DNA of 64,000 nt from Bacillota bacterium (lineage in GTDB: Bacteria; Bacillota; Limnochordia; DTU080): positions 20,483 through 84,482 of the forward strand of contig DULU01000052.1 of the NCBI GenBank assembly GCA_012840225.1. The letters run 5' to 3'. Shown here one piece after another: positions 1 through 40,319 of this stretch. The notes beneath the pieces were generated by a model that searched no databases, had not been told where the DNA came from, and was given only the letters and a program-made list of their open reading frames with translations. The position numbers were made by a program, and so were the translations under genes. The stretch's first letter is position 1, and every line of letters starts with the position of its first letter.

Positions 1-1635
1 GTGCGCACCCTCGCCGGGGCCGGAGCCCGGGTGATCGCCCTGGATATCCTTTTCTCGGAGTCCGGGGAGGAGCCGGCCGACGATCTGGAGTTGGCTCTGG
101 CCATCAAGGAAGCCGGCCGGGTGGTGCTCGCCAATAAAGTGACGGAGATCGCCGGGATGGGCCTCAAGGCTGTGCAGGTGAGCCATCCGGTGGCTGTGCT
201 GGATGAGGCGGCGGCCAGAGTCGGCCTGGTCAATATGGAATATGATGACGACAACTTCATCCGCCGCTCCTTCCTGGGCCGGGAATATAACGGGGTGGTG
301 AGGAGTTCCTTCTCCCTGGCGGCCGCCGCTTTATACCACAATATGTCCAAGGCGGAAGAGGAGGCTTTGGCTGCCGCCGCCTGGGGCAGGGAAGCGGAGG
401 TGGCCGGGCGGAAAGTACGTCTCGCTCCTGATGGTACATATCAGATCAATTATGCCGGGGGAGCGGGCACTTATCCCATCTACTCTTATTACCAGGTGTT
501 ATATGGTCTGATCCCCCCCGAGCGCTTCAGAGACCGCATTGTGCTGGTGGGGGCTACGGATGAGACCATGCACGACACCTTCGCCACGCCCTTTTTTGCT
601 GCCGGCGGCGGGCCCATGCCGGGAGTGGAAGTGCACGCCAATGCCTTGGCCACCCTGCTGGCGGGAAATGAGCTCGCCGGAGCGCCGTGGTGGTTCGATG
701 TCTTCTATATTGTTCTCCTTGTCTGGATGGTGTCGGCATATATCGGCGGGGTGGGGCCCTGGCGGGGGCTGCTCTTCACCGCCGGGCTGATGGTGGTGCA
801 TGTGGCGGTGGCTGTGGCGGCTTTTCTTTTCCGGGATTTCCGCTACCCTCTCATAGCTCCGCTGGTGGCCATCTTCAGCTGCTATGCCACCGTGACCGCC
901 TACCGCTTTTATGTTGAGGAAAGCGAGCGCCGCCGGGTGCGCAGCCTTTTCGGCCGCTATGTGTCCGATGAGGTGGTGCGGGAGATCGTCGACAACCAGG
1001 AGGAGATCGTCCTGGGCGGCCGGCGCCAAGAGGTGACCGTGCTTTTTTCGGACATCAGGGGTTTCACCCAGATGTCGGAACGTATGCGGCCTGAAGATGT
1101 GGTAACCATGTTGAATGAGTATTTCGATGCCATGACCGAGGTGATCTTCAACTGCGGCGGTACGGTGGACAAATTTGTAGGCGACTGCATCATGGCCATT
1201 TGGGGAGCGCCTGTGCCGGTCACAGATGGTGCCGCCAGGGCAGTGAAGGCGGCGGTGCTGATGCGCCGGGCGCTCTCCCGGCTGCAGGAGAAATGGCAGA
1301 AAGAGGGAAAAGTGTCCTTTGATACCGGTATCGGCATCAATACGGCCGAAGTGGTGGCCGGGAATATCGGGTCGCAGCGGCGGATGGAATATACGGTGAT
1401 AGGCGCCGGTGTAAACCTGGCGGCCAGGTTGGAGAGCGCCACCAGGGATCTGGGGGTACCTATCCTGATCAGCGCCGCCACCTATAAAATGGCCGGCTCG
1501 GCAGTGTTGGCCAGGCCTCTGCCGCCGGTGATGGTGAAGGGCATTGAGCAGCCGGTGCCGGTGTGGGAAGTGCTGGGCTGGCGTGAAGCTGATGGAGAGG
1601 AAATCCTGGTTGCCGGAGGCACTGGCTACAATTAG
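1..1635 (+). CDS. Class III adenylate/guanylate cyclase with N-terminal CHASE2-type membrane sensor region; 5' partial (runs off window start)
   Basis: C-terminal catalytic motifs FSDIRGFTQMSE...VGDCIMAIWGAP...TVIGAGVNLAARLE are typical of the class III cyclase homology domain. The upstream hydrophobic segments (WWFDVFYIVLLVWMVSAYIGGV...) are consistent with a CHASE2 architecture. The ORF is open from base 1. Confidence 0.75.
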   Translation: MRTLAGAGARVIALDILFSESGEEPADDLELALAIKEAGRVVLANKVTEIAGMGLKAVQVSHPVAVLDEAAARVGLVNMEYDDDNFIRRSFLGREYNGVVRSSFSLAAAALYHNMSKAEEEALAAAAWGREAEVAGRKVRLAPDGTYQINYAGGAGTYPIYSYYQVLYGLIPPERFRDRIVLVGATDETMHDTFATPFFAAGGGPMPGVEVHANALATLLAGNELAGAPWWFDVFYIVLLVWMVSAYIGGVGPWRGLLFTAGLMVVHVAVAVAAFLFRDFRYPLIAPLVAIFSCYATVTAYRFYVEESERRRVRSLFGRYVSDEVVREIVDNQEEIVLGGRRQEVTVLFSDIRGFTQMSERMRPEDVVTMLNEYFDAMTEVIFNCGGTVDKFVGDCIMAIWGAPVPVTDGAARAVKAAVLMRRALSRLQEKWQKEGKVSFDTGIGINTAEVVAGNIGSQRRMEYTVIGAGVNLAARLESATRDLGVPILISAATYKMAGSAVLARPLPPVMVKGIEQPVPVWEVLGWREADGEEILVAGGTGYN

Positions 1636-1664
1636 GGATGAGGTGTACGGTTTTGGCCTTTATG

Positions 1665-2522
1665 CGCATCTTCGGGGCTAGGGGAACTCATCCGGCGCCA
1701 GGGGCGGAATTTGCCGGGTATGGAGGCGAGACGGCTTGCCTGGCCTTTTTTGCCGACGAGGCCGAGGAGGACGGCCGGCTTCTGGATGTGGGGCCGCTCG
1801 TGGTGCTGGACGGAGGGACCGGAGTGATCTCCCTCGGTGCGGCGCTGGCGAGAACACCAAAAGGGAGGGCGCCGGAAAGACGGCCGGAAATCAGCATCTT
1901 TCTCACCCACCTGCATTACGATCATATCAGCGGCCTGCCTTTTTTTGCCCCCATCTACCAGCCCAAACGGCGGATTAAGCTCTACCTGGCCGAGGACATG
2001 GTGCCCTATCTCCGTCAATACTGGCAAAGACCGTTTTTTCCGTTGAACATCGCCGAGGTGCCGGCCGATTTGCAGCTTGTCGGTCTGGCGGAGGCCGGAG
2101 AGGAGCAGCTGTTGCCGGAATTGACGGTAAAATACCGGCGTCTCCCTTCCCCGGCTCACCTGGACGGGGTGGTCATGTACCGGGTGACCGGTCCGAGGGG
2201 TGAGGTGGCCTATATTACCGACATCGAACTGGTGGCTCCCGAGATCATGGCGGAGGCGACGGCTTTTGCCAAGGGGGCAGAGGTACTGGTATGCGACGCC
2301 ACCTATATGTCGGGAGAAGAGTATGAGCAGCATCGGGGCTGGGGACACAATAATATCGATATGGCCCTGACTCTGGCGGCAGAAGCCGGGGTGCGGGATC
2401 TCTATCTTTTCCATCACGAGCCGACGCGCCGCGATGCGGAGCTGGAGCTGATATTGGCCCTGGCCAAAACCAGGAGGGAGCGGGTTTTCCTGGCTTCGCC
2501 GGCGGTCCAGGTCTACCTTTAG
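1665..2522 (+). CDS. MBL-fold metallo-hydrolase
   Basis: Metal-binding motif HLHYDHISGL (HxHxDH) and later D/H residues typical of the metallo-beta-lactamase fold. The start is uncertain; the ORF opens at 1638 and the ATG at 1665 was chosen. Confidence 0.55.
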   Translation, partial: RIFGARGTHPAPGAEFAGYGGETACLAFFADEAEEDGRLLDVGPLVVLDGGTGVISLGAALARTPKGRAPERRPEISIFLTHLHYDHISGLPFFAPIYQPKRRIKLYLAEDMVPYLRQYWQRPFFPLNIAEVPADLQLVGLAEAGEEQLLPELTVKYRRLPSPAHLDGVVMYRVTGPRGEVAYITDIELVAPEIMAEATAFAKGAEVLVCDATYMSGEEYEQHRGWGHNNIDMALTLAAEAGVRDLYLFHHEPTRRDAELELILALAKTRRERVFLASPAVQVYL

Positions 2523-2628: not shown

Positions 2629-3312
2629 ATGGCTGAACCGATATATGCCGAGTATTTTTTTGATTTAAGCGGATGGTCCCATGCTTCCATATTTAAAGAA
2701 GGCGAGCCGGTCTGGCAGGCGCTGGAGAGGCTCCCGGAATACCTGGCCGGCTTGGGGGAGCCGGTGCTGCTCGGGACGGTGGAGCCCGGCGCCTGGGTCG
2801 GCGAAAAGGTCTATCTGGCTGAAGGGGCGCTGGTGCAAGCCGGGGCTATGGTGTGCGGGCCGGCTTACATCGGTCCGGGCAGCGTCATCCGCCACGGCGC
2901 CTATGTCAGGGAAAACTGCCTCATCGGCGCCGATTGCGTGGTCGGGCACTGCAGCGAAACCAAGGGCTGCATCATGCTGGACGGAGCCCAGGCCCCTCAT
3001 TTCAACTATGTGGGCGACAGCATCCTGGGGAGGAAGGTGAACCTGGGCGCCGGGACCAAGCTTTCCAACCTGAAAAATGATCGCAGCGAAATCACCGTGA
3101 CGGTGGCCGGGACCACCTATGCCACCGGCCGGAAAAAGTTGGGAGCGATAATCGGCGACCGGGTGGCCGTCGGCTGCAATGCGGTGACGAGTCCCGGTAC
3201 GCTCATCGGGCCCAACTCGTCCATATATGCCAACGTGGTGGTGCGCGGCTTTGTCCCCGCCTTGTCCATCGTCAAATTGAGACAGACCCAAGAGATCATA
3301 CCCATGAGATAA
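2629..3312 (+). CDS. Left-handed beta-helix (hexapeptide-repeat) transferase, GlmU C-terminal-like
   Basis: Repeated [LIV]-G-x-x-x-x hexapeptide pattern (VIRHGAYVRENCLIGADCVVGHCSETKGCIMLDGA...VNLGAGTKL...IGDRVAVGCNAV). An RBS-like GAGGA lies upstream of the ATG. Confidence 0.5.
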   Translation: MAEPIYAEYFFDLSGWSHASIFKEGEPVWQALERLPEYLAGLGEPVLLGTVEPGAWVGEKVYLAEGALVQAGAMVCGPAYIGPGSVIRHGAYVRENCLIGADCVVGHCSETKGCIMLDGAQAPHFNYVGDSILGRKVNLGAGTKLSNLKNDRSEITVTVAGTTYATGRKKLGAIIGDRVAVGCNAVTSPGTLIGPNSSIYANVVVRGFVPALSIVKLRQTQEIIPMR

Positions 3313-3350: not shown

Positions 3351-5369
3351 GTGTGGTTCATAGCTCAAGCCTGTGCTCCTGATTCCTATCCCGATGCCAA
3401 AGGCGCTCCCGCTCCCGGCGGGCCGGCGGCGCCCACGAAGCCATTAAAGCCTCTCGGAGCTTCGCGAGCGCATCTATGTTGTCGCTGGGGGGTGGCACCA
3501 AAAGGCGCCTTGCCGCCCGCACCCGGGGCAACGCTCGCCACCAAGGCGCTGCCGCTCTGGTTGGCGGAGTTGCTGGCGAGGCGGCTTTTCGGCAGCCTGG
3601 CGGGTGAGCGGGTGCTCAGCTCCACCTTTTTTCCTTTATATAAAGTCTACTGGCGCCTGCGGGGAGCAGGCCTCGCCGCGGCCTGGGGCTTTAAGGATAC
3701 CTTATGGCAAGATAACCCATGGCAGGATACTCTCCGGCAGCAGGGAGCGACGCAGGAGCAGGATGTGGAGGTGGAGGTGGGAGCAGACAAAGCGGCGGCT
3801 GCCCCTCCAGCTGGGGCTTTGGCGGAGACGGTGCTCCGGGTCACCAGCGGCCGGTATTTATCTGTGAGCGAGATCAAGGCGGAGTTGCCTCGTGAGGAGC
3901 GGGCCGCTTTTCGGCAGGAGTATTTGGACGACCTGGTCCGGCGGGGATCTTTGCGCTTCATGGCGGCCGTAGGTCCGGGGGAGAGCGGCGATATAGAGTG
4001 CAGGCGCTGCGGCAGCCGCAGGCGTATCGCATTTTCCTGGTGCGCCCGCTGTGCCATAGCTTGTCCAGAATGCCCCGAATGCCGGGACATGGGCCGCATG
4101 CGGGGCTGTGATGCCTTATATACCGCGGCAGAGCCTCCGGCCCCGCCGGCCTTCCGGCAGGACACCACCCTGGCCGCCACACCTGCCGCACCGTCCGGCG
4201 TTACACTTGTCACACCTCTCCAGCCGGAGCTGCCGTTTGCCTTGTCCAAAGCCCAGGCTCAGGCAGCCGGGGAGCTGGCGGCGGCCTCTGCCGCCAGGCA
4301 ATCGCCGGTGCTGGTGTGGGCGGCTTGCGGGGCGGGGAAGACGGAAGTGGCCTTTCATGCCGTAGCGCGGGAACTGGAGAGCGGCGGGCGGGTGCTCGTC
4401 ACCGCGCCGCGGCGGGATGTGGTGATCGACCTCTACCATCGCTTGGAGGCCGCCTTTCCGGGCTGCCGGATTGGCGGTCTGTGGGGGGGAGGGCGCTTCC
4501 TTCCGGCAGCAGGGCCGTCGCCGCAACTGATTGTCGCCACCACGCATCAAGCCATGCGGCTCAGCGCTTCGTTCAGCCTGGTGATTCTCGATGAATGCGA
4601 TGCTTTTCCATATAATGTCACCCCCATGCTGCAGCGCACCATCGCCCGCCTGAGCGAAGGCGGCGTCTTCATCCAGATGACCGCCACCCCGGCTCTCTCC
4701 ACCCGGCGGCAGGTAGCGGCTTCCGGGCGCATCATTTATATCCCGGCCCGCCATCATGGACATCCTTTGCCGGTGCCGAGCCTGCACCTGGACAGGTCTC
4801 TCGCCTCCTGGCCGGGAGGAGGGGTAGAGGCAGGAGCAGGGGGCGAGGTTGGAAGATGGGGGGGCAGAGGGGGAAGCAGCCGTGAGGGCGCGGCCGGCGA
4901 TACGGGCCAGGTGCCTAAAGTGCTCGCTGAGGTGATAGGGGAGACTCTGGCCGGCGGCGGGCGGCTTTTGGTGTTCGTGCCCACCAGGGCAATGGTGGCT
5001 CCGGTAGCCCGCTCCTTGCAACAAAATTTTAACATCGAGGTGGCCGGGGTGCATTCCGCCTCGCCGGAGCGGGATCTGGTGCGGGAAAAGCTGCGGAGCA
5101 GGGAATTAGCCCTGGTGGTATGCACCACCATCTTCGAGCGAGGCCTGACCTTTCCGGGCGTAGATGTGGCCGTGCTTTTCGCCGATAACGAAGCGGTTTT
5201 CGACCGGGCGACGCTGGTGCAGATCGCCGGGCGTCCGGGACGCACCACCGCTTTTCCCGAAGGCCGGGTTTACTTCATCGCTGCCCGCAAAAGCCGGTCC
5301 ATGCTGGGCGCCGTCGAAGATATTCGTTATTTGAACCGCCTCGCCGGGGAACGGAAATTGCTGTTATGA
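3351..5369 (+). CDS. comFA: ComFA-like competence helicase (DEAD/DEAH-box, with Zn-finger); long, possibly over-extended N-terminus
   Basis: Cys4 zinc finger CRRCGSRRRIAFSWCARCAIACPECPEC followed by Walker A VLVWAACGAGKTEVAF and DExD-like ILDECDAFPY. Similar in order and motifs to B. subtilis ComFA (WAVCGAGKTEM...IIDEVDAFPY). It is followed by comFC. The true start is probably internal (GTG near 3765-3777). Confidence 0.65.
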   Translation: MWFIAQACAPDSYPDAKGAPAPGGPAAPTKPLKPLGASRAHLCCRWGVAPKGALPPAPGATLATKALPLWLAELLARRLFGSLAGERVLSSTFFPLYKVYWRLRGAGLAAAWGFKDTLWQDNPWQDTLRQQGATQEQDVEVEVGADKAAAAPPAGALAETVLRVTSGRYLSVSEIKAELPREERAAFRQEYLDDLVRRGSLRFMAAVGPGESGDIECRRCGSRRRIAFSWCARCAIACPECPECRDMGRMRGCDALYTAAEPPAPPAFRQDTTLAATPAAPSGVTLVTPLQPELPFALSKAQAQAAGELAAASAARQSPVLVWAACGAGKTEVAFHAVARELESGGRVLVTAPRRDVVIDLYHRLEAAFPGCRIGGLWGGGRFLPAAGPSPQLIVATTHQAMRLSASFSLVILDECDAFPYNVTPMLQRTIARLSEGGVFIQMTATPALSTRRQVAASGRIIYIPARHHGHPLPVPSLHLDRSLASWPGGGVEAGAGGEVGRWGGRGGSSREGAAGDTGQVPKVLAEVIGETLAGGGRLLVFVPTRAMVAPVARSLQQNFNIEVAGVHSASPERDLVREKLRSRELALVVCTTIFERGLTFPGVDVAVLFADNEAVFDRATLVQIAGRPGRTTAFPEGRVYFIAARKSRSMLGAVEDIRYLNRLAGERKLLL

Positions 5370-5458: not shown

Positions 5459-6292
5459 ATGTTCCAGAAGGAGAAGGTGCGACACCGTCTCCAGATCTAT
5501 CGTCACTTGACCGGTGGCCTGGCTAGGGTGAGAGAAGACTTTGGCGATCTTTTGTTTCCCCCGCCGGCCGGCTGCGGTTATTGCGGAAGCGAGCTTATGC
5601 CGCCCCTGATGCCTTGGTGGACACCTGAGAATGCAGTGGACCAAACTTTGTGCCGGCGGTGCCTGGAACAGGTGGTATTTACCTCCGGACCGGGATGCGC
5701 CCGCTGCGGCCGACCCGAGCAGGAGGACAGGCTCTGTGTGTTCTGCCGCAACGACATATGCCGAGTGAGCGGCGGAAGCGCTACCGTCTATGAAGGGATC
5801 ATACCTGAGCTGACGCGGCGCTTGAAATTTAAAGGCGCCAGGCAACTGGCGGCTGCACTGGGCCGGATGGCCGCCATCACCGGCATGAAGGTTGCGGCCG
5901 GATGGCCGGTGACGGCTGTTGTCCCGGTGCCCCTGCATCAGGAGCGACTAGCTGAGAGAGGTTATAATCAGGCCCAGCTGATTGCCGGCGAGGTGGCGAG
6001 ATGGCTGGGGCGCCCGCTCTGGTCCGATATTTTGCTCCGCACGAGGAATACTAAACCTCAGAGCGGTTTGGATATTGCCGATAGAGCGAAGAACATTGAA
6101 GGAGCCTTTGTCGCCGTTGATGTTAAAAATTTAAGCAGACGATCAATTCTTTTGGTGGATGATGTGCTGACCACGGGAGCCACTCTGACGGCGGCGGCTG
6201 CTGCCCTCTTGGTGGCCGGTGCCGGCAGCGTCAGGTTTGTCACCGCCAGTGTGACGGTGGCCCCACCTCAGCACTGGAAGGGAGATTATTGA
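5459..6292 (+). CDS. comFC: ComF family protein ComFC (phosphoribosyltransferase-like)
   Basis: N-terminal Cys-rich region and C-terminal PRTase motif ILLVDDVLTTGATL. RBS GAAGGAG lies 8 nt upstream of the ATG at 5459. Position immediately after comFA. Confidence 0.75.
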   Translation: MFQKEKVRHRLQIYRHLTGGLARVREDFGDLLFPPPAGCGYCGSELMPPLMPWWTPENAVDQTLCRRCLEQVVFTSGPGCARCGRPEQEDRLCVFCRNDICRVSGGSATVYEGIIPELTRRLKFKGARQLAAALGRMAAITGMKVAAGWPVTAVVPVPLHQERLAERGYNQAQLIAGEVARWLGRPLWSDILLRTRNTKPQSGLDIADRAKNIEGAFVAVDVKNLSRRSILLVDDVLTTGATLTAAAAALLVAGAGSVRFVTASVTVAPPQHWKGDY

Positions 6293-6449
6293 CCAGAGGC
6301 AGTGTAGTGTAATGGGACGGTAATTAGACACCTTACCGACCGGGGGGAAAGAACAGCCGGAAAGATACCGGCCAAAAAACACAGGGCGGCCCATCAGCCC
6401 GGCAGCCGGCCACCGGTAGCCAGGGTTGTGTTCAGGGAGGGAGAGCAGC

Positions 6450-6674
6450 ATGCTAGTTCTCACACGCAAGCGTGACGAAAGCATCATCATTGGTGACGAT
6501 ATAAAAATCACGGTAGTGGAAGTGCGCGGCGATCAGGTCAAAATCGGGGTGGAAGCGCCGCGGGTGATTCCTGTGCACAGGGAGGAAGTGTATCGGGAAA
6601 TTCAGGAGGAAAAGGAAAGAGCAGCCCAAATGCAGGAAGTCGTCGCCGAGGGAGAAAGCCGGCCCGAGATGTAG
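6450..6674 (+). CDS. csrA: Carbon storage regulator CsrA
   Basis: [48 protein letters not shown] is essentially the CsrA consensus. RBS GGAGGGAG lies upstream. Confidence 0.85.
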
Positions 6675-6697
6675 CAAATAAAAGAGTTTTCAGTCGT

Positions 6698-6750
6698 CCG
6701 GGCGCACTGGAGGCGGCCGGTGCGCCCCTTCGCCATGGCATTTCTTCTTT
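6698..6750 (+). terminator. Putative intrinsic terminator after csrA (GC hairpin followed by delayed T-rich stretch)
   Basis: Stem CGGGCGCAC...GTGCGCCC followed by cttcgccatggcatttcttcttttcc. Confidence 0.35.
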
Positions 6751-6756
6751 TCCAGC

Positions 6757-6785
6757 TTGCACAAATACCGCAGGCGCAGTATAAT
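6757..6785 (+). promoter_or_regulatory. Consensus sigma-A type promoter (TTGCAC-N17-TATAAT)
   Basis: -35 TTGCAC (6757-6762), a 17-nt spacer, and a perfect -10 TATAAT (6780-6785). It drives a ~370-nt untranslated region upstream of the zinc-ribbon gene. Confidence 0.55.
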
Positions 6786-7154
6786 AGGGTAGCCGTATTG
6801 CTCAGGTCTGTGGTTGAAAGTCGAAGCCAGCCGCAGGCAAAGCGACCCACGTAAGGCGACGGATAATCAGTCGCCGAGCATGGTGCGGCTTAGTGTAAGT
6901 CCTGCCCACCACTTCCCTTAGGCCTTTCTCCGATCCCCTCAGATTATTGGGTGGTATTGGGTGCCTTGGAAACCGGCAGCGCAGTAGATCTATCTATGTC
7001 ACAACAACATGAAGATCAAGGAAGTGGTGGAGAGAAGCCCGCCGATTGGCGAGGATTCCCGCAGGTGAGTGTGGGGGCAAAGACCAGGTCAGCTGGGCAA
7101 TAACGGTTATTCTTTTGCCGGTCGTCCATGCCGGGGAAGTGGGGGATTGGAGAA

Positions 7155-7439
7155 ATGCCATTTACGGACAAGACCCTGAAATGTAAGGACTGCGGTCAGG
7201 AATTTGTGTTTACGGCAGGGGAGCAGTCGTTCTACCAGGAAAAGGGCTTCCAGAACGAGCCGAGCCGCTGTCGTGAATGCCGGGATTCCCGCAAAAGGGA
7301 ACGGGAGTCGGGAGCACCGCGCCAGCTTTATGATGTGACCTGTGCCGATTGCGGCGTCCAGACGCAGGTGCCGTTCCAGCCGCGCGGCGACCGTCCGGTT
7401 TATTGCCGGGAGTGCTTCGCCGCCAGGAAGTCTGTATAA
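7155..7439 (+). CDS. Zinc-ribbon domain protein (two CxxC...CxxC knuckles)
   Basis: CKDCGQEF...CRECRDSR and CADCGVQ...CRECF motifs. RBS GGGGGATTGGAGAA is immediately upstream of the ATG at 7155. Confidence 0.6.
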   Translation: MPFTDKTLKCKDCGQEFVFTAGEQSFYQEKGFQNEPSRCRECRDSRKRERESGAPRQLYDVTCADCGVQTQVPFQPRGDRPVYCRECFAARKSV

Positions 7440-7666
7440 CGAGCGACCTGACGACCTGCCGTTCCGGAGGTGCGCCGATTTTCGGTAATTGTGATCATAA
7501 CCGCATCAATAATTGTTCAAAATGAGAAGAGAAAAGGTGGCCTGGTGCAGGTCGCCTTTTCTTTACCGGTAGAGCGTTGTCACCAAGGATTTAGCGCCGA
7601 TCAGTCCAAGTATATATATAAGAATCCGCCATACGGACTAAGGTAATCGTGAAGGGAGCGGTGGTT

Positions 7667-8218
7667 ATGGCTCAGGATAAGAAGTTGCGGATATCCGTCA
7701 GGGGCAAGAATATCGAGGTTACCGAAGCCTTGCGCCTCCATGCGGAAAAGAAGGTGCAAAAGATCGGCAAATTTTTCCGCGGTGGGGGAGCCGTCGATGT
7801 CGAGGTGGAGCTAGGCGTGCAGCGGGAGTTGCACATCGCTGAGGTCACGGTGAAGGTGGATGGGCTGATGCTCCGGGGAGAAAGCCGGACCTCGGATATG
7901 TATGCCAGCATCGACGCTGCCGTGGACCGCATTGAACGCCAGTTCAATAAATATAAAACCAAAATTTTGCGCCGCCTGCAGGGGACGCCGCGCCTCAGCA
8001 CCGAGCGGCCGGCTGAACCTGAGGAAGAAGAAGAGAAGGCGCCGGTGGTGGTGCGCTCCAAGCGCTTCGGCGTCAAACCCATGGATGTGGAGGAAGCCAT
8101 CACCCAGATGGAGTTGCTCGGCCACGACTTCTTCGTATTCCACAATGCCGCCACCCAGCAGTTCAATGTGGTTTACAAAAGGCGGGACGGCAACTACGGT
8201 TTGATTGAGCCCGATTAA
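7667..8218 (+). CDS. hpf: Ribosome hibernation promoting factor (long HPF, RaiA/YvyD family)
   Basis: N-terminal RaiA domain (KLRISVRGKNIEVTEALRLHAEKKVQKIGKFF) plus C-terminal dimerisation domain (VKPMDVEEAITQMELLGHDFFVF.N). Located upstream of secA as in B. subtilis yvyD-secA-prfB. Confidence 0.85.
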   Translation: MAQDKKLRISVRGKNIEVTEALRLHAEKKVQKIGKFFRGGGAVDVEVELGVQRELHIAEVTVKVDGLMLRGESRTSDMYASIDAAVDRIERQFNKYKTKILRRLQGTPRLSTERPAEPEEEEEKAPVVVRSKRFGVKPMDVEEAITQMELLGHDFFVFHNAATQQFNVVYKRRDGNYGLIEPD

Positions 8219-8464: not shown

Positions 8465-9088
8465 ATGCCGGAGACGATTCCCGCACCTGAACTGATTGAA
8501 GCGGAGCTGCGGCAGTTGCGGGGAGTTATCGCTGTCCGGGTGGTTGTGTCAATGCAAAAAATAGAAGAAGTGCATGTTCTTGCCGATCGTACCAGGCCGG
8601 CCAAACAGATTGTGCGCGACATTGAGGCGGCTTGTGCCGCCCGCTTCAATTTGGATATCGACCACCGGAAGATCAGTGTAGCTCAGATAGAAGCCTCGCC
8701 TTCACCAGCTTTTTTTCGCTTATGCCTGGAAAGCGTGACCGTGGAGACGGGGCGCGACAATGCCACCGCCGTGGTCTGCATCTCGGCTCAAGGGGAAAAA
8801 TTTACAGGGAAGGCCACCGGTTTGGCCGCGCTGGTTCCCCTGGGAAAACTAGCCGCCTTGGCGGCGATCAATGCCGTGGATAATTATATGGCCGGGCAGA
8901 TGAGGTTGGAGTTAACCGATTTTGTCCCTTTCAGGCTGGCCGGCTGGTCGGGTTTTGTGGCGGTGGTGTCGGTGCTGCAGGGAGCCAGGGAAGAAAAAAT
9001 GATCGGTTGTGCCCTGCTGCACCGCAACGAACCGGAAGCCGGGGTAAAAGCGGTGCTGGATGCCATAAACCAGTATCTCCCGTCTTGA
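8465..9088 (+). CDS. Conserved hypothetical protein (two-domain, no recognised motif)
   Basis: Good RBS GGTGGGAGGA 7 nt before the ATG. Coding-like composition. Sits between hpf and secA. Confidence 0.5.
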   Translation: MPETIPAPELIEAELRQLRGVIAVRVVVSMQKIEEVHVLADRTRPAKQIVRDIEAACAARFNLDIDHRKISVAQIEASPSPAFFRLCLESVTVETGRDNATAVVCISAQGEKFTGKATGLAALVPLGKLAALAAINAVDNYMAGQMRLELTDFVPFRLAGWSGFVAVVSVLQGAREEKMIGCALLHRNEPEAGVKAVLDAINQYLPS

Positions 9089-9204: not shown

Positions 9205-12030
9205 ATGCTTGGTTTTCTGAAAAGAATGGTTGATACCAATACAAAAGAAGTGCGCCGCCTGACGGAAAGAGCTCAAGCCATCACGGCTCTGGAACCTGAG
9301 ATCAAAAAGCTCACCGACGACGAGTTGCGGGCTAAGACCGGCCAGTTTAAGGAAAGGTTGGCCAGAGGTGCCGGTCTGGATGATATACTGGACGAGGCCT
9401 TTGCCGTGGTGAGGGAGGCGGCACAGCGCACCATCGGCCAGCGGCATTTCGATGTGCAGCTGATGGGCGGCATCGTCCTGCATGAAGGGCGCATCGCCGA
9501 GATGAAGACCGGCGAAGGGAAAACCTTGGTCTCCACCTTGCCGGTTTACCTCAATGCCTTGGCCGGCCGCGGGGTGCATGTGGTCACCGTCAACGACTAC
9601 CTGGCCCGCAGGGACTCCGAATGGATGGGGCATATCCACAAGTTCCTGGGTCTCTCGGTAGGTTGCATCCTTCATCACCTGGATTACGCCCAGCGGAAGC
9701 AAGCCTATGCCTGTGATATCACCTACGGCACCAACAATGAGTTCGGCTTCGACTACCTGCGGGACAATATGGTCCTCCACCCTGAGCAGCGGGTGCAGCG
9801 GGAGCTTTATTATGCCATCGTCGACGAGGTGGACTCCATCTTGATCGACGAAGCCCGCACCCCCCTGATCATTTCCGGGGCAGCGGAAGAGTCGACGGAG
9901 CATTACTACAAATTTGCCAAGCTGGTGCCCAGGCTGCAGAGGGATGTGGACTACACCGTCGATGAGAAGACCCGCCAGGTGGCCATCACCGAGGAAGGTG
10001 TGGAGAAGCTGGAGCGCTGGCTGGGTGTGAACATGTTTGACGAGACGCACTTTGAGCTGACGCATTACATGCAGCAGGCGCTCCGCGCTCACTGCCTTTA
10101 CCAGCGGGACCGGGATTATGTGGTGAAAGACGGCCAGGTGATCATCGTCGATGAGTTTACCGGCCGGCTGATGTTCGGCCGCCGCTATGGCGACGGGCTG
10201 CATCAGGCTATTGAAGCCAAGGAGAATGTGCGCATCGAGCGGGAGACCCAGACTCTGGCCTCCATCACTTTCCAGAACTATTTCCGCATGTATCGGAAGC
10301 TGGCGGGCATGACCGGTACGGCGGAGACTGAGGAGGCGGAATTCCGGAAGATCTACGGCATGGACGTGGTGGTGATCCCCACCAATATGCCTATGATCCG
10401 TGAGGATCTCCCCGATCTGGTCTATAAGACCGAGAAGGGCAAATTTGAGGCGGTGGTCGAGGAGATCAACAGGCTCTATGAGGAAGGCCGGCCGGTGCTG
10501 GTCGGTACCATCTCCATCGAGAAGTCGGAAAGGCTGTCGGAGATGCTGAAGCGGCGGGGCGTGCCGCACCGGGTGCTGAACGCCAAGCACCATGAGATGG
10601 AAGCGGAGATCATCGCCCAGGCCGGGAGGTATAAAGCGGTGACCATCGCCACCAACATGGCGGGCCGAGGCACGGACATCGTTCTGGGCGGCAACCCGGA
10701 ATACCTGGCCAAACAGCGCCTGCGCGCCGAGGGGGTGCCGCCGGAGATCCTGGCCGAGCTGACCGAGCACACCAGGTCGAACAATCCCGAGGTGCTCACC
10801 GCCAAGGAAAAATATATGAAATATTATAAGGAAATCAAGGCGGAGACCGACAAGGAACGGGAGAAGGTGCTCGCGCTCGGCGGCCTGATGATCATCGGCA
10901 CCGAGAGGCATGAGAGCCGGCGCATCGATAACCAGTTGCGCGGGCGCAGCGGCCGCCAGGGCGACCCGGGGGCTTCCCGCTTTTATGTTTCTCTCGAGGA
11001 TGATCTGATGCGCCTCTTCGGTTCCCAGCGCATCGCCGGGCTGATGGACCGCCTGGGCTGGCAGGACGACCAGCCGATAGAGCACAAGCGTATCACCAAG
11101 TCCATCGAGACCGCCCAGCGCAAAGTGGAATCCTATTATTTCGATATCCGCGAGCAGGTGCTCAAATATGACGATGTGCTGAACAAACAGCGGGAAGTAG
11201 TCTACGAGCTGCGGCGCAAAGTGCTGATGGGTGAGGATGTGCACCAGCGGGTCCTGGAAATGCTGGGGGATGTGGTGAAGAAGCTGGTGCAGAAGTTCTG
11301 TCCCGAAAAGGTCCATGCTGATGAGTGGGACTTAAGCGGCCTGGTGGAGAGCTTCCATGAGCTGATCGCCGCCGACACCGGCCTCACTGCGGCGGACCTG
11401 GCCGAAGCCGACCGGACGCAGGTGCAGGAGATTTTGACCGGTAAGGCACGCTCGGCCTATGAAGCCAGGGAGACCACCCTCGGCGCCGAGCATCTGCGGG
11501 AGCTGGAGCGGCTCGTCATATTGCACTTCATCGATCTCAGATGGATGGATCACCTGCGCAATATGGACGATCTGCGGGAAGGGATTGGGCTCAGGGCCTA
11601 TGCCCAGAAAGATCCGTTGCTGGAATACCAGTTTGAGGGCTTTCAGATGTTCCAGGCCATGATGGACTCGCTATATGAGGGAGTTTTACGCTACCTCTTC
11701 CGGGTGCAGATCACCCAGGACGGCAAGGACAAAAGCGCCGGCGGGCGACGGGCGGTGCTGGGCGGCAGCCGGGCCGGGCGCCATCCCCTGGCTGCTCAGA
11801 CCAATCGGAGCGGGGACGGCAGCGGCAGCGGGGGCGGTTTTGCGGCCGGCGGCATGGCCGGGACAGGCACCATGGCCGGGGCCGGTGGTATGGCCGGCAG
11901 CCCGGGCGGTGCCGGGAGCGGCGGAGGCGGCGTCAATCAGCCGCGGCGGGCTCCGGCAAAGGTGGGCCGGAATGATCCGTGCCCCTGCGGCTCGGGTAAG
12001 AAGTACAAAAAGTGTTGCGGGGCCAACTGA
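9205..12030 (+). CDS. secA: Preprotein translocase ATPase SecA
   Basis: Full-length SecA motifs (DEAD motor, MAGRGTDI, C-terminal zinc-binding [14 protein letters not shown]). Contains an unusual Gly-rich insertion just before the zinc motif. Confidence 0.95.
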
Positions 12031-12062
12031 AGATATCATGGCAGCACAGAGGGGGAATAGGC

Positions 12063-13170
12063 TTGGTTGAACTGAACGACATAAGAGACGGCCTGGACGA
12101 GTTGAATAAAAAGATCACCCAGATGGGTGATTATCTTTGACATAGAAGGCACGAAGAAACAACTGGCCGTCCTGGAAGAGAAGATGGGTGCCGGCGATTT
12201 CTGGCAAAATCCGGACGAGGCCAAGAAGGTAACCAAGGAAGCGAGCTTCCTGAAAGACAGGCTCACCTCCTGGACGGAGGTGAAGCAGCAGCATGACGAC
12301 CTGGCCGTCCTATTCGACCTGGCGGTTGAGGAAAACGACGAGAATTCGTTAAGCGAAGTGGCCACGGCGCTCGCCGACCTGCGGAACACAGTGGCCCGGC
12401 TGGAGCTTGCCACCTTGCTCAACGGCGAATTCGACAACGCCAACGCCATCATTTCCATTCATCCTGGGGCCGGGGGCACCGAATCCCAGGACTGGGCGGA
12501 GATGTTGCTGCGCATGTATACCCGCTGGGCCGAGGAGCACCGCTATGAGGTGGAGATGCTCGACTACCAGCCCGGTGATGAGGCGGGTATCAAGAGCGTC
12601 TCTTTCCTGGTGTCCGGTCCTTATGCTTATGGCTATCTCAAGGCCGAGAAAGGAGTGCACCGCCTGGTGCGCATATCGCCCTTCGATGCCTCGGGGCGGC
12701 GGCACACTTCCTTTGCCTCCATCGATTGCCTGCCGGAAATCGCCGACGATATAGAAATCGAGATCGACCCGGCAGACCTGAAGATCGATACCTACCGCTC
12801 CAGCGGGGCCGGCGGGCAGCATGTCAACAAGACCGAATCGGCTATCAGGATCCTGCATATTCCCACCGGCATCGTGGTCACCTGCCAGTCCGAGCGCTCG
12901 CAGCACTCCAACCGGGAGGCGGCCATGAAGATATTGCGGGCCAAACTTTATGAAAAGCAAAGGGAGGAACAGCGGCAAAAATTGGAGGATCTGCGCGGCG
13001 AACAGCGGGAGATCGCCTGGGGCAGCCAGATTCGCTCCTATGTCTTTTGCCCCTATACCATGGTGAAAGATCACCGCACCAATGCCGAAACCGGCAACGT
13101 GCAGGCGGTGATGGACGGTGATCTGGATATGTTCATCGAGGCCTATCTGCGTTGGCAGGCTTCCCAATAA
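12063..13170 (+). CDS. prfB: Peptide chain release factor 2 with programmed +1 ribosomal frameshift
   Basis: Frame 0 from TTG 12063 (RBS AGAGGGGGAA) encodes LVELNDIRDGLDELNKKITQMGDYL then TGA at 12138 within the classic CTT TGA C shift site. The +1 frame continues DIEGTKKQLAVLEEK... through the RF2 domains (SPF, GGQ-type NKTESAIRILH) to 13170. Mirrors the E. coli/B. subtilis prfB recoding site. Confidence 0.85.
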
Positions 13171-34982: not shown

Positions 34983-36254
34983 ATGAAAAAATTGGTATCG
35001 CTTTTGACCGCAGTTTTGGCTCTGGCTCTGATCGGCACCATGCCTGCCGTCGCCGCCGGAGTCCTGAAGACGGACGGCAAACTTGCCGGGGAATACAAAA
35101 TACAGAACGGTAACCTGCCGGCTGCAGCCAACTTGACCACCGAGGTCAATCTGGCGGTGGAGGCTGAGGAGGAAGGCTGGCGGGCCGAGGCGGAGTTGGG
35201 TAACCTCATCGGCGGCGCGACCGCTTTGGGTGAGTATCAGATCGAGTTCCGCGATCCCAGGCTCAACCTCAGCTTCTGGGGTCTGGGCCGGGAATACCAG
35301 GAAGAGGATCTCACCGATCCATTTGAGTTCATAACCTCCGCACACAAATATATGGGCAATTTGAAGGCCCGGGCTATTGCCGGTCCGCTCACGGTGGATT
35401 TTGAGGACGACGGCGAGTTCTTCGTGTTCGGCGAGAAAGAGATCGCCGGGCAGACCCTCGGTATCGCCGCCCACCACAAATTGCCCTTGAGCAACGGCTT
35501 CACCGCTTTAGGCTACGACCGCATCAACCTGGCCGGTGTAGAGCTGACTGCCGGTGTGGGTGTCAACACCAAAGCCACCGCTCCCTCAGATCTGGCCTAT
35601 GCGGTGAAAGCCGAGGTGCCGGTACCTGTGGTGCCGGAACTGAAAGCTATCGCCCAGTTTAAGATCCAGCCGGCCGGCTTCAACGGCGCCGATGAAAAGG
35701 AAATCAAGCTGGAAGGCGTGCATGAGACGGACTTGCTGAAAGTGAACGGTTCATTCGCCAACGCCATGTCCAATACCACCGGAGCATTCAAACAGAATGT
35801 AGTGGAAGCCACAGCAGAGTGGCGTGGGGCCAAAGGCGAGCTGGACTGGGACGAGCAGTTTGAGAGCGATGAATACTTCAAGAACACGGCTCCTGCCGTC
35901 CGGGCGCAGCTCAACCGCACCACCACTCCGGGCGACGTGGTCGCTACCAAAATAGCCGTGACCGGCACCTCGCCCATCATTCCCGGACAGGTCTGGGTGC
36001 TCGGCAGCCTGGTTAATGAACCGGAAGCCAAGCGCACGGAGATCAAGGGCGACGGTTATATCAAGATGAGTGAAAAGATCATCCTGGAACCGGGTGTACG
36101 CTATGAGAAGGCTCCGGTCGAAACCATGGAGCTGATCGGCAAGGCCACCTATCAGATGAATGAAAACGGTAAAGTATGGGCCAAATATGCCCAGAAAAAC
36201 ACCGGAGGCACGAGGAACGACGAGATCAGCGCCGGATACGAAGTGCTGTTTTAA
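34983..36254 (+). CDS. Predicted outer-membrane beta-barrel protein (paralog A; signal peptide, C-terminal Y-x-V-L-F)
   Basis: Sec signal peptide MKKLVSLLTAVLALALIGTMPAVAAG. Beta-rich alternating composition. C-terminus ISAGYEVLF with terminal Phe and hydrophobics at -3/-5/-7. RBS AAGGGGGATAA is shared with the paralogs. Confidence 0.6.
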   Translation: MKKLVSLLTAVLALALIGTMPAVAAGVLKTDGKLAGEYKIQNGNLPAAANLTTEVNLAVEAEEEGWRAEAELGNLIGGATALGEYQIEFRDPRLNLSFWGLGREYQEEDLTDPFEFITSAHKYMGNLKARAIAGPLTVDFEDDGEFFVFGEKEIAGQTLGIAAHHKLPLSNGFTALGYDRINLAGVELTAGVGVNTKATAPSDLAYAVKAEVPVPVVPELKAIAQFKIQPAGFNGADEKEIKLEGVHETDLLKVNGSFANAMSNTTGAFKQNVVEATAEWRGAKGELDWDEQFESDEYFKNTAPAVRAQLNRTTTPGDVVATKIAVTGTSPIIPGQVWVLGSLVNEPEAKRTEIKGDGYIKMSEKIILEPGVRYEKAPVETMELIGKATYQMNENGKVWAKYAQKNTGGTRNDEISAGYEVLF

Positions 36255-36332
36255 TCGGACAGCGGTTTTCAGCCGGCGTTTGCTCCGGACCCAATAATAA
36301 AATAAATATAGAAAATAACAGAAATAGTGGTG

Positions 36333-36374
36333 AGAGCACCTGCACCGGTCGGCGCAGGTGCTCTTTCTTCTTTT
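36333..36374 (+). terminator. Rho-independent terminator
   Basis: AGAGCACCTGC-accggtcggc-GCAGGTGCTCT followed by TTCTTCTTTT. Confidence 0.65.
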
Positions 36375-36893
36375 CAGCTTTCAGCTTCCCTCAGCCGTCA
36401 GTTTCCCTCCGCTTATCTTTAATCTATGTTTTTATTGGTTTTATAGTTAAAAATTGCAATTGGCCGGAAGGAATTGGCGTTATCATGATGAAATATCGTA
36501 TAACTTCTGCAGCCGGATATGGGTACGAGGGGAATAAAAATAAAGTATGTAAGGTAATCCTTACATCCCTTGACGGGAAGCGATAAATTTACCAAAAAAG
36601 GCAGCGAACCAGCAGGAAAACGAGGATATTAGTAAAAACATACAAGGTGCATAGAGGGCGAAGGCTATAAGTCCGGATTAACTGGCGGTAGGGAAAGGAG
36701 GTGCACCCCGAGGTTTACCGCGAGTGCAGTGAATCACCGGACATAGCGGGGGGCTGGATGCCGGTAACGAAAGCGTCTGCTGTTCACTAATGGTAACAAG
36801 GTCACTTTAGTGAAGATATGGCGCTGTGTCCGGCCGGCAGTAAACATACGCATGCTCCTCTTAATAAATGAAAAAACTAAGGGGGTTCTATAA

Positions 36894-38240
36894 ATGAAGA
36901 AGCTAGTATTAGCTCTATGTCTAGTGCTGACATTGAGTGTGGCGGCATATGCCGACACCACAGTTGAGGTGGGTATTACCGGACAGGTCAAGTGGGATGC
37001 CAACGTAGCTCAGAAAGACGATCCCGGCTATGGGAGCCAACCGGTCCTCAAGGTAACAAGCAAGGGAACCGGCTGGACGGCCTCTTTTGATACCTTCTAC
37101 AACCGCTTCAAGCTCCAGGGCAGCGAAGGCCCGTTGAGCGTAGCGGTATGGGGAGGCTTTGGTCCCAGCGGTTTGGGCGTGGCGAGCTATGAGCGTGTAT
37201 CGCCCGTAGTCCGTCCGGACAGCACGTTCAACTGGATCCAGGGCGCTCAGGATTCCAATGCGAGCAACTGGAGATTCCGCACCGTATATAACCATAGCCT
37301 GGCCAAGTTGACCCTGGACTACGATAATCAAAGCGACCAAGCCATCCTGGCGGCTGAGAAGACCATCTCCGGCTTCGCTTCCGGTATTGGTGTCCAGCGT
37401 TCTACCAACCCGACCAAGGACGAGTCCGTCTTCGCCGCTTGGACCAGCGGCAAGATCGCCGGTGCGACGGTGGTCGGCGTAGGTGCCATCCAGGCGGTCA
37501 ACGGCGACACCAAGGATCGTACCAGCGTCGGTGTCAAAGCCACCTATACCATTCAGCCGATCAACGTCACGGCCATGGGTTACTTCATGGTGCGCGGCAA
37601 GAGCTTCGGCAATGTCACCACCGGTTATATCGAAGGTTCCAAGAACATCATCAACAACCTTGGCAACCTCTATGGTTACTTCAAGTATGATAAAAATGCT
37701 ACCACTGATGTCGTCACCACCAACATCTATGGTCGTCTGCGCCTGCGCGGCGATACCGGATCCGCGTTCAACTGGAACCTGGTAGACGGTTACACCAGGG
37801 ATCGCAGCTGGCTCAAGGTGAAGACCTACTCCAGCCAGTTCTACGTCCAGAGAACCCAGGCGGGTGATAAAGTCAGCCTGTTCAGGTTCTATGGCTTAGG
37901 CGTGGTTAAGTTGGATGTGGCCAAAGGTCTGTGGGTCCGTCCCGAGATCTACATCGAGCCCATCGCCAATGCTAACAAGGACAAGAGAACACTCGTCAAT
38001 GGCAATGCTTATCTGCAGCTGACCGACCGGGTCTTTGCCGAGGCGACCGGACAGTATCAGAATAGGAGCCAGGATGACAATCCTTCCAATAACTTCAGCG
38101 TTTCCATCGGCTTCTCCGCCGATCCGGTAACCGTGCATCTGGAGCCCACCAAGCGGGTAACGTTGAAGGTCGAGTCTTCGACCAGCACCGCCAATGTGAC
38201 CACCAATTCGGCTACGCTGAACTACCTCCTGGTCTTCTAA
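36894..38240 (+). CDS. Predicted outer-membrane beta-barrel protein (paralog B)
   Basis: Signal peptide MKKLVLALCLVLTLSVAAYA. ~55% identical to paralog C over its length (shared blocks QRSTNPTKDESV..WTSGKI, GRLRLRGD.GS...W.LVD.YTR, GLWVRPE.YIEP, LVNGNAYL.LTDRV). C-terminus ATLNYLLVF. Confidence 0.65.
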   Translation: MKKLVLALCLVLTLSVAAYADTTVEVGITGQVKWDANVAQKDDPGYGSQPVLKVTSKGTGWTASFDTFYNRFKLQGSEGPLSVAVWGGFGPSGLGVASYERVSPVVRPDSTFNWIQGAQDSNASNWRFRTVYNHSLAKLTLDYDNQSDQAILAAEKTISGFASGIGVQRSTNPTKDESVFAAWTSGKIAGATVVGVGAIQAVNGDTKDRTSVGVKATYTIQPINVTAMGYFMVRGKSFGNVTTGYIEGSKNIINNLGNLYGYFKYDKNATTDVVTTNIYGRLRLRGDTGSAFNWNLVDGYTRDRSWLKVKTYSSQFYVQRTQAGDKVSLFRFYGLGVVKLDVAKGLWVRPEIYIEPIANANKDKRTLVNGNAYLQLTDRVFAEATGQYQNRSQDDNPSNNFSVSIGFSADPVTVHLEPTKRVTLKVESSTSTANVTTNSATLNYLLVF

Positions 38241-38279
38241 TCGTCAAGATTTAGAAACAGAGGATAGAAACTTCAAAAT

Positions 38280-38390
38280 AGAACCGCTGTAGCCTGTGCT
38301 GCAGCGGTTCTATTTGTTTAGCGCTCTTCGACCATAACTACTTATCCTTGTAGCAGCACCGGTGCTCATAGCCGGTGCTTTTCTTTTTTT
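38280..38390 (+). terminator. Two tandem intrinsic terminator hairpins
   Basis: GAACCGCTG...CAGCGGTTC + TATTTGTTT (38281-38320), and GCACCGG-tgctcatag-CCGGTGC + TTTTCTTTTTTT (38355-38390). Confidence 0.6.
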
Positions 38391-38748
38391 AGCCCTTGGC
38401 AGCAGTTGGGATAGTTAATAGTAATATCCAGGCACAGCATGCGCAGAAAAGAAGGAAAACAGGGAAATGCAAAGAAACAATGATATACAAGAATGCATTA
38501 CAGGCGGAAAGCTTGGCTGTACTGGCGGTGGAGAAAGGAGGTGTTCCCCACAAGTTGGCCGCAAGGGCAGTGATCGCCAAGCTGAAGCGGGGAGCACGGT
38601 ATTAAGGAAAATGAAGGTTGGGGCAGCAGTCGGTGTGGTCTGGAAGGAAACTTGGACACTTTCAGCGGCAGCCGGTGCCGCCACAGCCGACCATAAGACA
38701 TTTACCTGCTCCTCCTATAGATGAAGCAACAACTTAGGGGGTTTATTG

Positions 38749-40086: not shown

Positions 40087-40167
40087 TAAGAAGATATTGC
40101 AGTTAGCCAAACAGATGGCCAAAGGGATTGCGAGGCTCTGGCCATAAGGCCATAGTCCTCCTGAAGT

Positions 40168-40212
40168 AAACCGCCGCCGCCGCAGCTGCTGCTGCGGCGG
40201 TTGGCGTTTGGG
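40168..40212 (+). terminator. Intrinsic terminator-like GC hairpin
   Basis: AACCGCCGCCGCCGCAGC-TGCT-GCTGCGGCGGTT followed by GGCGTTTGGG. Confidence 0.5.
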
Positions 40213-40289
40213 TGGATAGGCATAGCCGGCTGAGTTGTGTGGCGGCCGATTTGGGTCAAATGGAAATGGGGTGGGTGCTCATTTGCCTG

Positions 40290-40319
40290 TTGACGGGGGA
40301 ATAGGAGTAGTGGTATAGT
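40290..40319 (+). promoter_or_regulatory. Sigma-A-like promoter (TTGACG-N18-TATAGT) upstream of the 40453 gene
   Basis: -35 TTGACG (40290-40295), 18-nt spacer, -10 TATAGT (40314-40319), followed by an AT-rich ~130-nt leader. Confidence 0.45.

Follow-up and report, generated by a model that had tools for sequence, protein, structure and literature searches.

The region of about 370 nucleotides (nt) that lies between csrA and a small zinc-finger gene in contig DULU01000052.1, from an uncultured Limnochordia-like member of the Bacillota, is, judged by its match to a family model, the gene for a known structured non-coding RNA, the raiA motif (ModT), with its own promoter and in the family's usual context. 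We analyzed 64 kb of this contig, called the window throughout, in which raiA RNA (RF03072) is the sole Rfam match. The match runs from 6797 to 7101 on the + strand, covers positions 1-209 of the 209 in the model, and reaches 143.1 bits, where the gathering score is 101.3 (E 2e-35). A first-pass annotation of the window had described this region as an untranslated, GGA-rich leader of the zinc-finger gene, with the pattern expected of an RNA that is bound by CsrA or titrates it; the full-length match replaces the leader by a discrete RNA gene. We propose that the locus holds three independent neighbors, namely a raiA RNA transcribed from its own promoter, a csrA gene maintained by selection without FliW, and a zinc-finger gene expressed by read-through, and we put the probability of this reading at roughly 0.9.

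The raiA motif was discovered by comparative genomics in 2017, and more than 2,500 examples are now known from Bacillota and Actinomycetota. Without the RNA, sporulation, aggregation, and the onset of stationary phase are disturbed, and the RNA binds KhpA/KhpB (PMC5737381, PMC10861870, PMC11706538, PMC12968392). Of its loci, 74% have comFC upstream of the RNA and 66% have the raiA/hpf gene downstream (PMC10861870). The window shows this typical setting, with a single copy in 64 kb, comFC two genes upstream, and hpf two genes downstream, so that the RNA again lies between comFC and hpf. The immediate neighbors differ, being csrA rather than comFC upstream and the zinc-finger gene rather than hpf downstream. 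Sixteen other loci, some related and some distant, have a raiA RNA in the corresponding place, with scores of 130-191 bits. Flagellar genes, which adjoin the RNA in several of these relatives, had already been noted by Weinberg upstream of raiA RNAs (PMC5737381).

The architecture of the RNA likewise agrees with that of the family. We compared it across 12 Limnochordia-like lineages, which were collected from the contigs of CsrA homologues and by a pattern scan of metagenomes. The closing stem P1 is present in the form CAG-GU-CUGUGG... paired with ...CCA-GGU-CAGCUGGG, including the conserved GU and GGU bulges, and can be extended by four further pairs (6793-6796 with 7103-7106). The core blocks (P3/P4 and the pseudoknot strands) are invariant in 11-12 lineages, the invariant P1b/P1c sequences of the family are present, and a GAAA turn follows P1c without an intervening P2, as in the C. 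acetobutylicum RNA. Compensatory changes occur in P1, P5, P6, and the bases of P7 and P8, and the outer P1 pairs show two-sided compensatory changes in 1-6 of the 12 sequences each. The RNAalifold consensus disagrees with the published fold over the invariant 5' domain and was used for the covarying helices only. The single-stranded linker (UUAGUGUAAG in the window) reads UUAG-N-GUAAG in all 12 RNAs, which is 1 nt shorter than the published UUAGA(C/A)GUAA that has been proposed as the KhpA/KhpB contact (PMC12968392). The RNA would fold into the conserved architecture of a long closing P1, a P3/P4/pseudoknot core, a large P7 expansion, and a short P8.

The peripheral domain departs from that of characterized members. 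P6, P7, and P8 are all present, with a 114-nt insertion in P7 relative to the Rfam model. RNA lengths in the 12 lineages range from 174 to 308 nt, and nearly all of this variation lies in the P7 region, which measures 19-124 nt among 11 related lineages (19 nt in L031, 33 in L018, 71 in L025, 104 in L026, 115 in L021, and 124 in the window, where L numbers denote the loci compared). The window RNA, at about 310 nt, exceeds the family average of about 200 nt by its 124-nt branched P7 region; the P7 of C. acetobutylicum has 4 bp and that of Nocardioides 14 bp. The possibility that the P7 insert is an independent element was rejected: it gave no further Rfam match at E <= 10, its sequence is not conserved with the similarly long insert of L021, and its predicted fold barely beats that of shuffled sequences (z -1.7). 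Because P7 is known as a poorly conserved peripheral stem, we read the insert as a hypervariable expansion segment that is large yet within the family pattern. P8 is only 24 nt long and lacks the AGUA/GAA E-loop of relatives, which docks on the core in solved structures (PMC12968392). A P6-P7-P8 domain with the P8 E-loop occurs in 68% of raiA members, and members without P8 are known.

The predicted transcription signals fit a separate RNA gene. The first-pass annotation had reported a consensus sigma-A promoter, TTGCAC-N17-TATAAT, upstream of the region. This sequence is present and its -10 element is perfect, but the -35 element matches only 3-4 of 6 positions. Moreover, 10 of 11 related lineages have TATAAT or TATACT at a distance of 19-21 nt upstream of the invariant CAGGTCTGTGG, and a conserved sigA promoter has been described for modT in clostridia (PMC11706538). 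Transcription is predicted to start at about 6791-6792, so that the transcript would begin right where P1 begins. If it behaves like the RNAs of Clostridium acetobutylicum and Clostridioides difficile, the RNA would be abundant and act in trans, affecting the stationary-phase transition, sporulation, and aggregation. At the 3' end, the P1 strand is followed directly by a U-rich tract, UUAUUCUUUU, a possible weak terminator that would permit read-through. U-tracts occur after P1 in most flagellated relatives and are absent from L021, L018, L032, and L035.

The first-pass proposal that the region is a CsrA-bound 5' leader of the zinc-finger mRNA, or a CsrB-like RNA that titrates CsrA, was based on csrA lying directly upstream and on GGA motifs in the supposed leader. 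The segment 6786-7154 contains 8 GGA motifs, compared with 8.4 +/- 2.1 in dinucleotide shuffles and 9.1 in window tiles of the same length, so that the description "GGA-rich" does not hold; counted per 300 nt, the region has 5-8 GGA motifs, where the window averages 7.4. The 305-nt raiA RNA itself has 5 GGA motifs where 6.9 are expected. Across the lineages, its GGA density (0.4-1.9 per 100 nt) is under the mononucleotide expectation and no higher in lineages with an orphan csrA than in flagellated ones. The annotated hairpin GGCGAC-GGAUAAUCA-GUCGCC does exist, but at 6855-6875 rather than at about 6874-6894, and corresponds to P5 of the raiA fold. Its loop holds the single looped GGA of the RNA (6861), which favors CsrA binding. 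This loop, however, differs in every relative (for example GCAAAAAGC in L021 and GCAAAG in L018); its GGA is absent from L021, L018, and L032, and none of the other GGA positions within the window RNA is conserved in these three lineages. RNAs of the CsrB/RsmZ type, which sequester CsrA, have several-fold more GGA motifs. The raiA RNA resembles CsrB, CsrC, RsmY, and RsmZ in being a non-coding RNA of about 300 nt with its own promoter near csrA, and differs from them in the lack of GGA excess, of repeated GGA-loop hairpins, and of GGA conservation, and in belonging to another RNA family.

A further argument for CsrA binding comes from the ribosome-binding site of the zinc-finger gene, where the sequence GGGGGAUUGGAGAAaug reported by the first-pass annotation was found as described. 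A 13-nt block at the ribosome-binding site, GGAAGYGRGGGAU (GGAAGUGGGGGAU in the window), contains two GGA motifs and is kept in 4 of 4 lineages of the orphan-csrA clade. The distance between block and start codon differs by 1-2 nt from lineage to lineage, which implies that the block is noncoding; for the same reason, an in-frame ATG at 7128 was rejected as the start of the gene. By eye, the block looks like an extended Shine-Dalgarno sequence that could pair with the 3' tail of 16S rRNA, and the simplest reading is that it is a strong ribosome-binding site. Its GGA motifs are then largely expected, because any Shine-Dalgarno sequence of the GGAGG type contains them. Most of the block (AAGCGAGGGAUU) also occurs in the Christensenellales locus L035, which has no csrA within its 8 kb, and the first GGA is lost in both the Thermosinus and the Christensenellales loci. 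The two GGA motifs start 9 nt apart. Bridging of two GGA motifs by one CsrA dimer requires a minimum spacing, and 9 nt is near or below it.

In favor of CsrA binding, csrA also directly precedes the raiA RNA in L031. Against it, the raiA family occurs in Actinomycetota and at loci without a nearby csrA, and deletion of the genes formerly between csrA and the RNA would explain why the two adjoin in the window. Thus, we consider it very improbable that the region is a CsrA-bound leader or a CsrA-titrating RNA. As a weaker corollary, a FliW-independent CsrA may have been recruited to the raiA RNA and zinc-finger gene in the aflagellate clade through the GGA-containing ribosome-binding block.

The csrA gene itself was described by the first-pass annotation as an orphan at the site of a deleted flagellar locus, and flagellated relatives bear this out at the level of the locus. 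No homologue of flgM, flgN, flgK, flgL, fliW, flagellin, fliD, or fliS was found in the 64-kb window by tblastn and Pfam searches, in agreement with the reported absence of fliW, flagellin, and flagellar cap genes before hpf. By contrast, fliW lies immediately upstream of csrA in L015 (Limnochorda pilosa), L016, L017, L022, and L031. In L015-L017, comFC is followed by a gene for a small zinc protein and then by flgM-flgN-flgK-flgL-fliW-csrA; flagellin, flaG, fliD, and fliS follow csrA in L015 and L016, with the raiA RNA further downstream and then hpf-secA in L016, while the L015 locus stops before any hpf and the L017 contig stops just past csrA. The short L022 contig has flgL-fliW-csrA, and L031 has flgK-flgL-fliW-csrA-raiA RNA-hpf. 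The direct order comFC-csrA is found in the window and four other divergent lineages, whose ComFC and HPF proteins are only 44-49% and 62-66% identical to those of the window. In three of the four (L021; L018/19/20/23/29; L032), the order continues as raiA RNA-zinc-finger gene-hpf, and in the fourth (L033) the contig ends after csrA. This comparison supports the view that csrA is the remainder of a late flagellar cluster (flgM...fliW-csrA-flagellin...fliS) that would have been lost on both sides in this lineage.

The orphan gene encodes a Firmicute-type CsrA of 74 amino acids (aa) that scores 92.6 bits against Pfam (cut-off 27) and 98.1 and 90.6 bits against two NCBIfam equivalogs (cut-offs 73 and 70.1). 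Its RNA-binding core residues are kept, and the core aligns with those of FliW-linked CsrAs. In the other orphan lineages, 43-51 of the 51 core residues (84-100%) are identical to those of the window, although synonymous sites have reached saturation; the core of L021 is identical at 51 of 51 residues with a synonymous difference (pS) of 0.75. In the three lineage pairs with unsaturated synonymous sites, none of which involves the window, csrA dN/dS is 0.04-0.06. The conserved core, saturated synonymous sites, and low dN/dS imply that csrA is maintained by selection and not simply left behind, and the gene would be kept by strong purifying selection as one for an RNA-binding protein.

In flagellated bacteria such as Bacillus subtilis, CsrA forms a switch with FliW and flagellin; Asn55 is reported to be invariant in CsrA-FliW systems, and FliW binding depends on both this residue and the C-terminal extension (PMC13407953). 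The window protein still has a 19-residue C-terminal tail, and relatives show that csrA originally stood behind fliW, within the late flagellar cluster that begins past comFC. The window locus, however, has neither a FliW nor a flagellin homologue, and residue 55 of its CsrA is Lys. Asn55 is found in 111 of the 120 closest CsrAs and in 5 of 5 FliW-linked relatives, whereas it is replaced in 4 of 5 orphan lineages (Lys in the window, Gln with a truncated tail in L018, Ala in L032, and Thr in L033). Every lineage without Asn55 that could be placed in context is a fliW-less orphan (Fisher's exact p = 0.048, uncorrected for phylogeny). The loss of Asn55, which is needed for inhibition by FliW, implies that this CsrA presumably regulates other mRNAs without FliW control. 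We infer that FliW is absent from the genome. Independent losses of the ancestral CsrA-FliW system have been acknowledged (PMC13443453), and the orphan csrA is a sound instance of this pattern at the level of the locus.

A contrary explanation is that csrA no longer functions and is in the course of being lost. Neither its partner genes nor its target genes remain at the locus, its FliW-contact residue is replaced, the tail is truncated in L018-type lineages (64 aa), and L029, also of the L018 type, carries an in-frame deletion of about 12 codons (approximately 1326-1472) that removes a strand region, or else is an assembly artefact. Against this, the reading frame is intact in five lineages whose ComFC proteins have diverged to 44-49% identity, the product passes the NCBIfam equivalog cut-off and retains its RNA-binding residues, and the core is under the constraint described above, with dN/dS of about 0.05 where measurable. 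Decay of csrA is therefore highly unlikely.

The third neighbor, the gene that follows the raiA RNA, encodes a 94-aa protein with two zinc fingers (CxxC-x17-CxxC) that meets the curated cut-offs of TIGR04272, PF13451, and PF23477 (86.7 and 71.6 bits for the Pfam families and 72.7 bits). Alignment of 35 sequences showed 30 invariant columns, including eight invariant Cys, and homologues are 65-77% identical across Clostridia, Negativicutes, and others in Bacillota. An AlphaFold2 model (predicted local distance difference test score 87) has two zinc-knuckle units joined by a basic helix, and a search for structural neighbors of this model returned no significant match. Only small archaeal proteins have been shown to bind zinc through this domain (PMC12704099). 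A further tight group of homologues, on viral-classed IMG/VR contigs that may be phage or misclassified bacterial (L036-L075), starts with MYNDKTIVCKDCGQEFTFTANEQEFF... and has short upstream spacers.

The gene begins 36-58 nt past the raiA RNA in all six loci examined, which represent three Bacillota classes. Two of these loci contain distant homologues that were looked up for context, and in both the start codon lies 36 nt past the end of a raiA RNA of the same strand. In Thermosinus carboxydivorans Nor1, a Negativicute (L034), the RNA (191 bits) follows flaG-fliD-fliS-fliT, whereas in L035, a Christensenellales metagenome-assembled genome, the RNA (168 bits) belongs to a promoter-RNA-gene-terminator unit between genes on the opposite strand. 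A terminator hairpin with a U-run is absent from the spacer in all five loci other than the window, which has only the weak U-rich tract. No separate promoter for the zinc-finger gene was found in the 48-nt spacer of the window. A strong terminator follows the gene in the window (17-bp stem, then UUUUCUUU), L034, and L035. The zinc-finger gene looks co-transcribed with the raiA RNA on these grounds; it would most likely be expressed by read-through from the raiA promoter, with the unit ending at the terminator at 7532-7564.

The linkage is partial within the family. The zinc-finger gene is lacking in eight flagellated Limnochordia-like raiA loci, other genes follow the raiA RNA in C. acetobutylicum and C. 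difficile, and no raiA RNA was found near 51 more distant homologues (IMG/VR contigs, 50-62% identity). Gene callers missed the zinc-finger gene in L018 (7443-7733), L019, and L020 (8808-9098), and in L032 (1281-1571) a spurious 180-aa antisense open reading frame (ORF) was called over both the RNA and the gene. Being so often missed or miscalled, the gene would be overlooked in annotation-based neighborhood surveys, which may account for their silence on it. None of the papers that could be searched names the raiA motif together with zinc, and the main texts of the raiA papers describe no such gene.

Three related proposals can be made for this arrangement. The broadest, which we consider less likely than not, is that the raiA RNA and the 94-aa protein form a conserved two-gene operon in Limnochordia-like bacteria, Thermosinus carboxydivorans, and Christensenellales, in which the protein is a partner, an effector, or a cis-regulated output of the RNA. 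The second holds that the protein is a dedicated partner or effector in a ribonucleoprotein encoded by one operon, comparable to OLE RNA and its partner proteins. Like OLE RNA, which adjoins oapA and other partner genes, raiA RNA is a large conserved structured RNA of Bacillota that is directly followed, in several lineages, by a small conserved gene of the same orientation; the differences are that the linkage holds in only part of the raiA family, that the zinc-finger protein is soluble and zinc-binding rather than a membrane protein, and that its partnership with the RNA is only proposed. The conserved adjacency at six loci and the strong conservation of the protein favor a partnership, as do the two zinc knuckles with a basic linker, which are frequent in nucleic-acid binders, and the zinc binding of archaeal homologues (PMC12704099). 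Moreover, 15 of 19 over-extended zinc-finger ORFs (plus P0351) contain the translated invariant 3' segment of raiA RNA, 15-19 codons before the core motif, in a sample biased to GC-rich upstream sequence poor in stop codons. However, pull-downs of C. difficile ModT enriched KhpA/KhpB with no such protein mentioned, and both the different downstream genes of C. acetobutylicum and C. difficile and the distant homologues without raiA RNA speak against it. We regard a dedicated partnership as somewhat unlikely.

The third proposal is that the raiA element acts in cis as the 5' part of the zinc-finger mRNA, for example through processing, stability, or read-through past P1 that depends on a ligand or a protein. 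The short spacer, which in the five loci other than the window has no terminator hairpin with a U-run, the isolated module of L035, and the known read-through isoforms of ModT agree with such a role. Against it, deletion phenotypes have been complemented in trans in two species, in many loci raiA RNA is remote from the next gene or on the other strand, the zinc-finger gene is lacking from eight related raiA loci, and an RNA of the reported abundance would be a poor dedicated leader for one small gene. We therefore judge a cis-acting role to be unlikely, and return to a trans-acting RNA whose promoter would also serve the gene downstream.

Several observations weigh against our reading of three independent neighbors. 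The window RNA lacks the docking E-loop of P8 and its linker is 1 nt short, so that its functional equivalence to characterized raiA RNAs is assumed. Sequence coverage comprised the 64 kb and overlapping metagenome contigs, and fliW or a second csrA may sit elsewhere in the genome. The orphan lineage L021 keeps Asn55, and the deletion in L029 hints that csrA is dispensable in some populations. The transcription start, 3' end, and read-through are predictions, and most transcripts might already end at the U-rich tract (7107-7116), which would leave the zinc-finger gene dependent on another source of transcription.

The remaining features of the locus are listed with those above in Table 1. The ORF listing and the Pfam and NCBIfam scans gave the + strand order CHASE2-cyclase, metallo-beta-lactamase (MBL)-fold protein, hexapeptide transferase, comFA, comFC, and csrA, followed after a 480-nt gap by the zinc-finger gene, hpf, a 207-aa gene of unknown function, secA, and prfB. 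The gene order of the first-pass annotation, with csrA directly after comFC, was correct. Its terminator after csrA is only a possible one: a hairpin is present, but the T-rich run (6741-6751) lies 13 nt past it and a terminator scan did not call it. A canonical terminator occupies the equivalent place in L021. The match of ComFC to an NCBIfam comF subfamily was below the cut-off. The closest homologues of the window CsrA are from Limnochordia, GroEL is 76-77% identical to that of Limnochordia metagenome-assembled genomes, and the organism is known only from metagenomes (biogas reactors). A scan of genome contigs with ComFC as the query returned only distant homologues (29-46% identity, other phyla), whose synteny was uninformative.

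Table 1. Coordinates of the features discussed (window positions unless another locus is named).
Feature	Position	Strand	Basis or remark
CHASE2-cyclase	1-1635	+	
MBL-fold protein	1638-2522	+	
Hexapeptide transferase	2629-3312	+	
comFA	3351-5369	+	
comFC (ComF-family phosphoribosyltransferase-like competence protein)	5459-6292	+	Pfam DZR_2 + Pribosyltran
csrA, 74 aa, fliW/flagellin not adjoining	6450-6674	+	Pfam CsrA, NCBIfam equivalog
11-bp GC-rich hairpin 3' of csrA, loop AGGCGG; possible non-canonical terminator	6700-6727	+	Fold
Predicted sigma-A-type promoter of raiA RNA, TTGCAC-N17-TATAAT	6757-6785	+	-35 at 6757-6762, -10 at 6780-6785
raiA motif (ModT) structured non-coding RNA, ~314 nt including 4-bp P1 extension	6793-7106	+	Rfam match 6797-7101
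P5 hairpin (the earlier GGA-loop hairpin)	6855-6875	+	Stem covaries, loop variable
Conserved single-stranded linker	6890-6899	+	
P7 expansion segment, ~100-nt branched insert	6907-7029	+	10-bp basal stem 6907-6916 / 7020-7029
Shortened P8 hairpin, 24 nt, without E-loop	7035-7058	+	
U-rich tract after P1 3' strand; possible weak terminator with read-through	7107-7116	+	
Conserved ribosome-binding block before zinc-finger gene	7135-7147	+	
94-aa double zinc-finger protein (zf_Tbcl + zf_Tbcl_2)	7155-7439	+	Pfam, TIGR04272
Strong intrinsic terminator after zinc-finger gene	7532-7564	+	
hpf/raiA ribosome hibernation factor	7667-8218	+	Pfam Ribosomal_S30AE + S30AE_C
secA	9205-12030	+	Followed by prfB
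raiA RNA-zinc-finger gene loci	window 7155-7439; L034 3707-4291; L035 3658-4276; L021 2566-3214; L018 7180-7733; L032 1050-1571		

Several additional observations were made in the window and in related loci. The CHASE2-sensor adenylate/guanylate cyclase is followed by the MBL-fold protein, which has a faint or weak match to the Apyc1 family of cyclic-nucleotide phosphodiesterases, and the orphan-csrA clade keeps this pair upstream of comFA (L018 344-3035, L020 1709-4400); the pair may both make and degrade a cyclic nucleotide. The 207-aa protein encoded between hpf and secA (8465-9088) gave only a sub-threshold LeuA_dimer match and no NCBIfam match, and a protein of similar size is encoded at this position in L018/L020 and not in the flagellated L016. 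The prfB gene (12012-13170) has a canonical programmed +1 frameshift site, TAT CTT TGA C, at about 12132-12141, which joins a short upstream frame to the main RF2 frame. Four consecutive + strand ORFs at 34983-42039 (423, 448, 446, and 567 aa) have no Pfam match; the first three have N-termini like signal peptides, the second and third are paralogues with 51% identity, and the four products may belong to the surface or the outer membrane of a diderm Limnochordia-like cell. Finally, a cyclic di-GMP (c-di-GMP)-I riboswitch (84 bits) lies at 2167-2251 of L017, before DUF192 and HD-GYP-type genes and a few kb ahead of the comFC-flagellar cluster; loss of ModT raises c-di-GMP in C. difficile.

These results remove the account of a CsrA-sequestering RNA and make the flagged RNA one more raiA/ModT in its usual place. 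They also identify an uncultured Limnochordia-like Bacillota clade as a natural case in which to study the role of a Firmicute CsrA without FliW or flagellin. The most novel lead is the putative raiA RNA-zinc-finger operon, and the zinc-finger gene, which is present in the cultured Thermosinus carboxydivorans Nor1, is a concrete candidate for a partner of raiA RNA.

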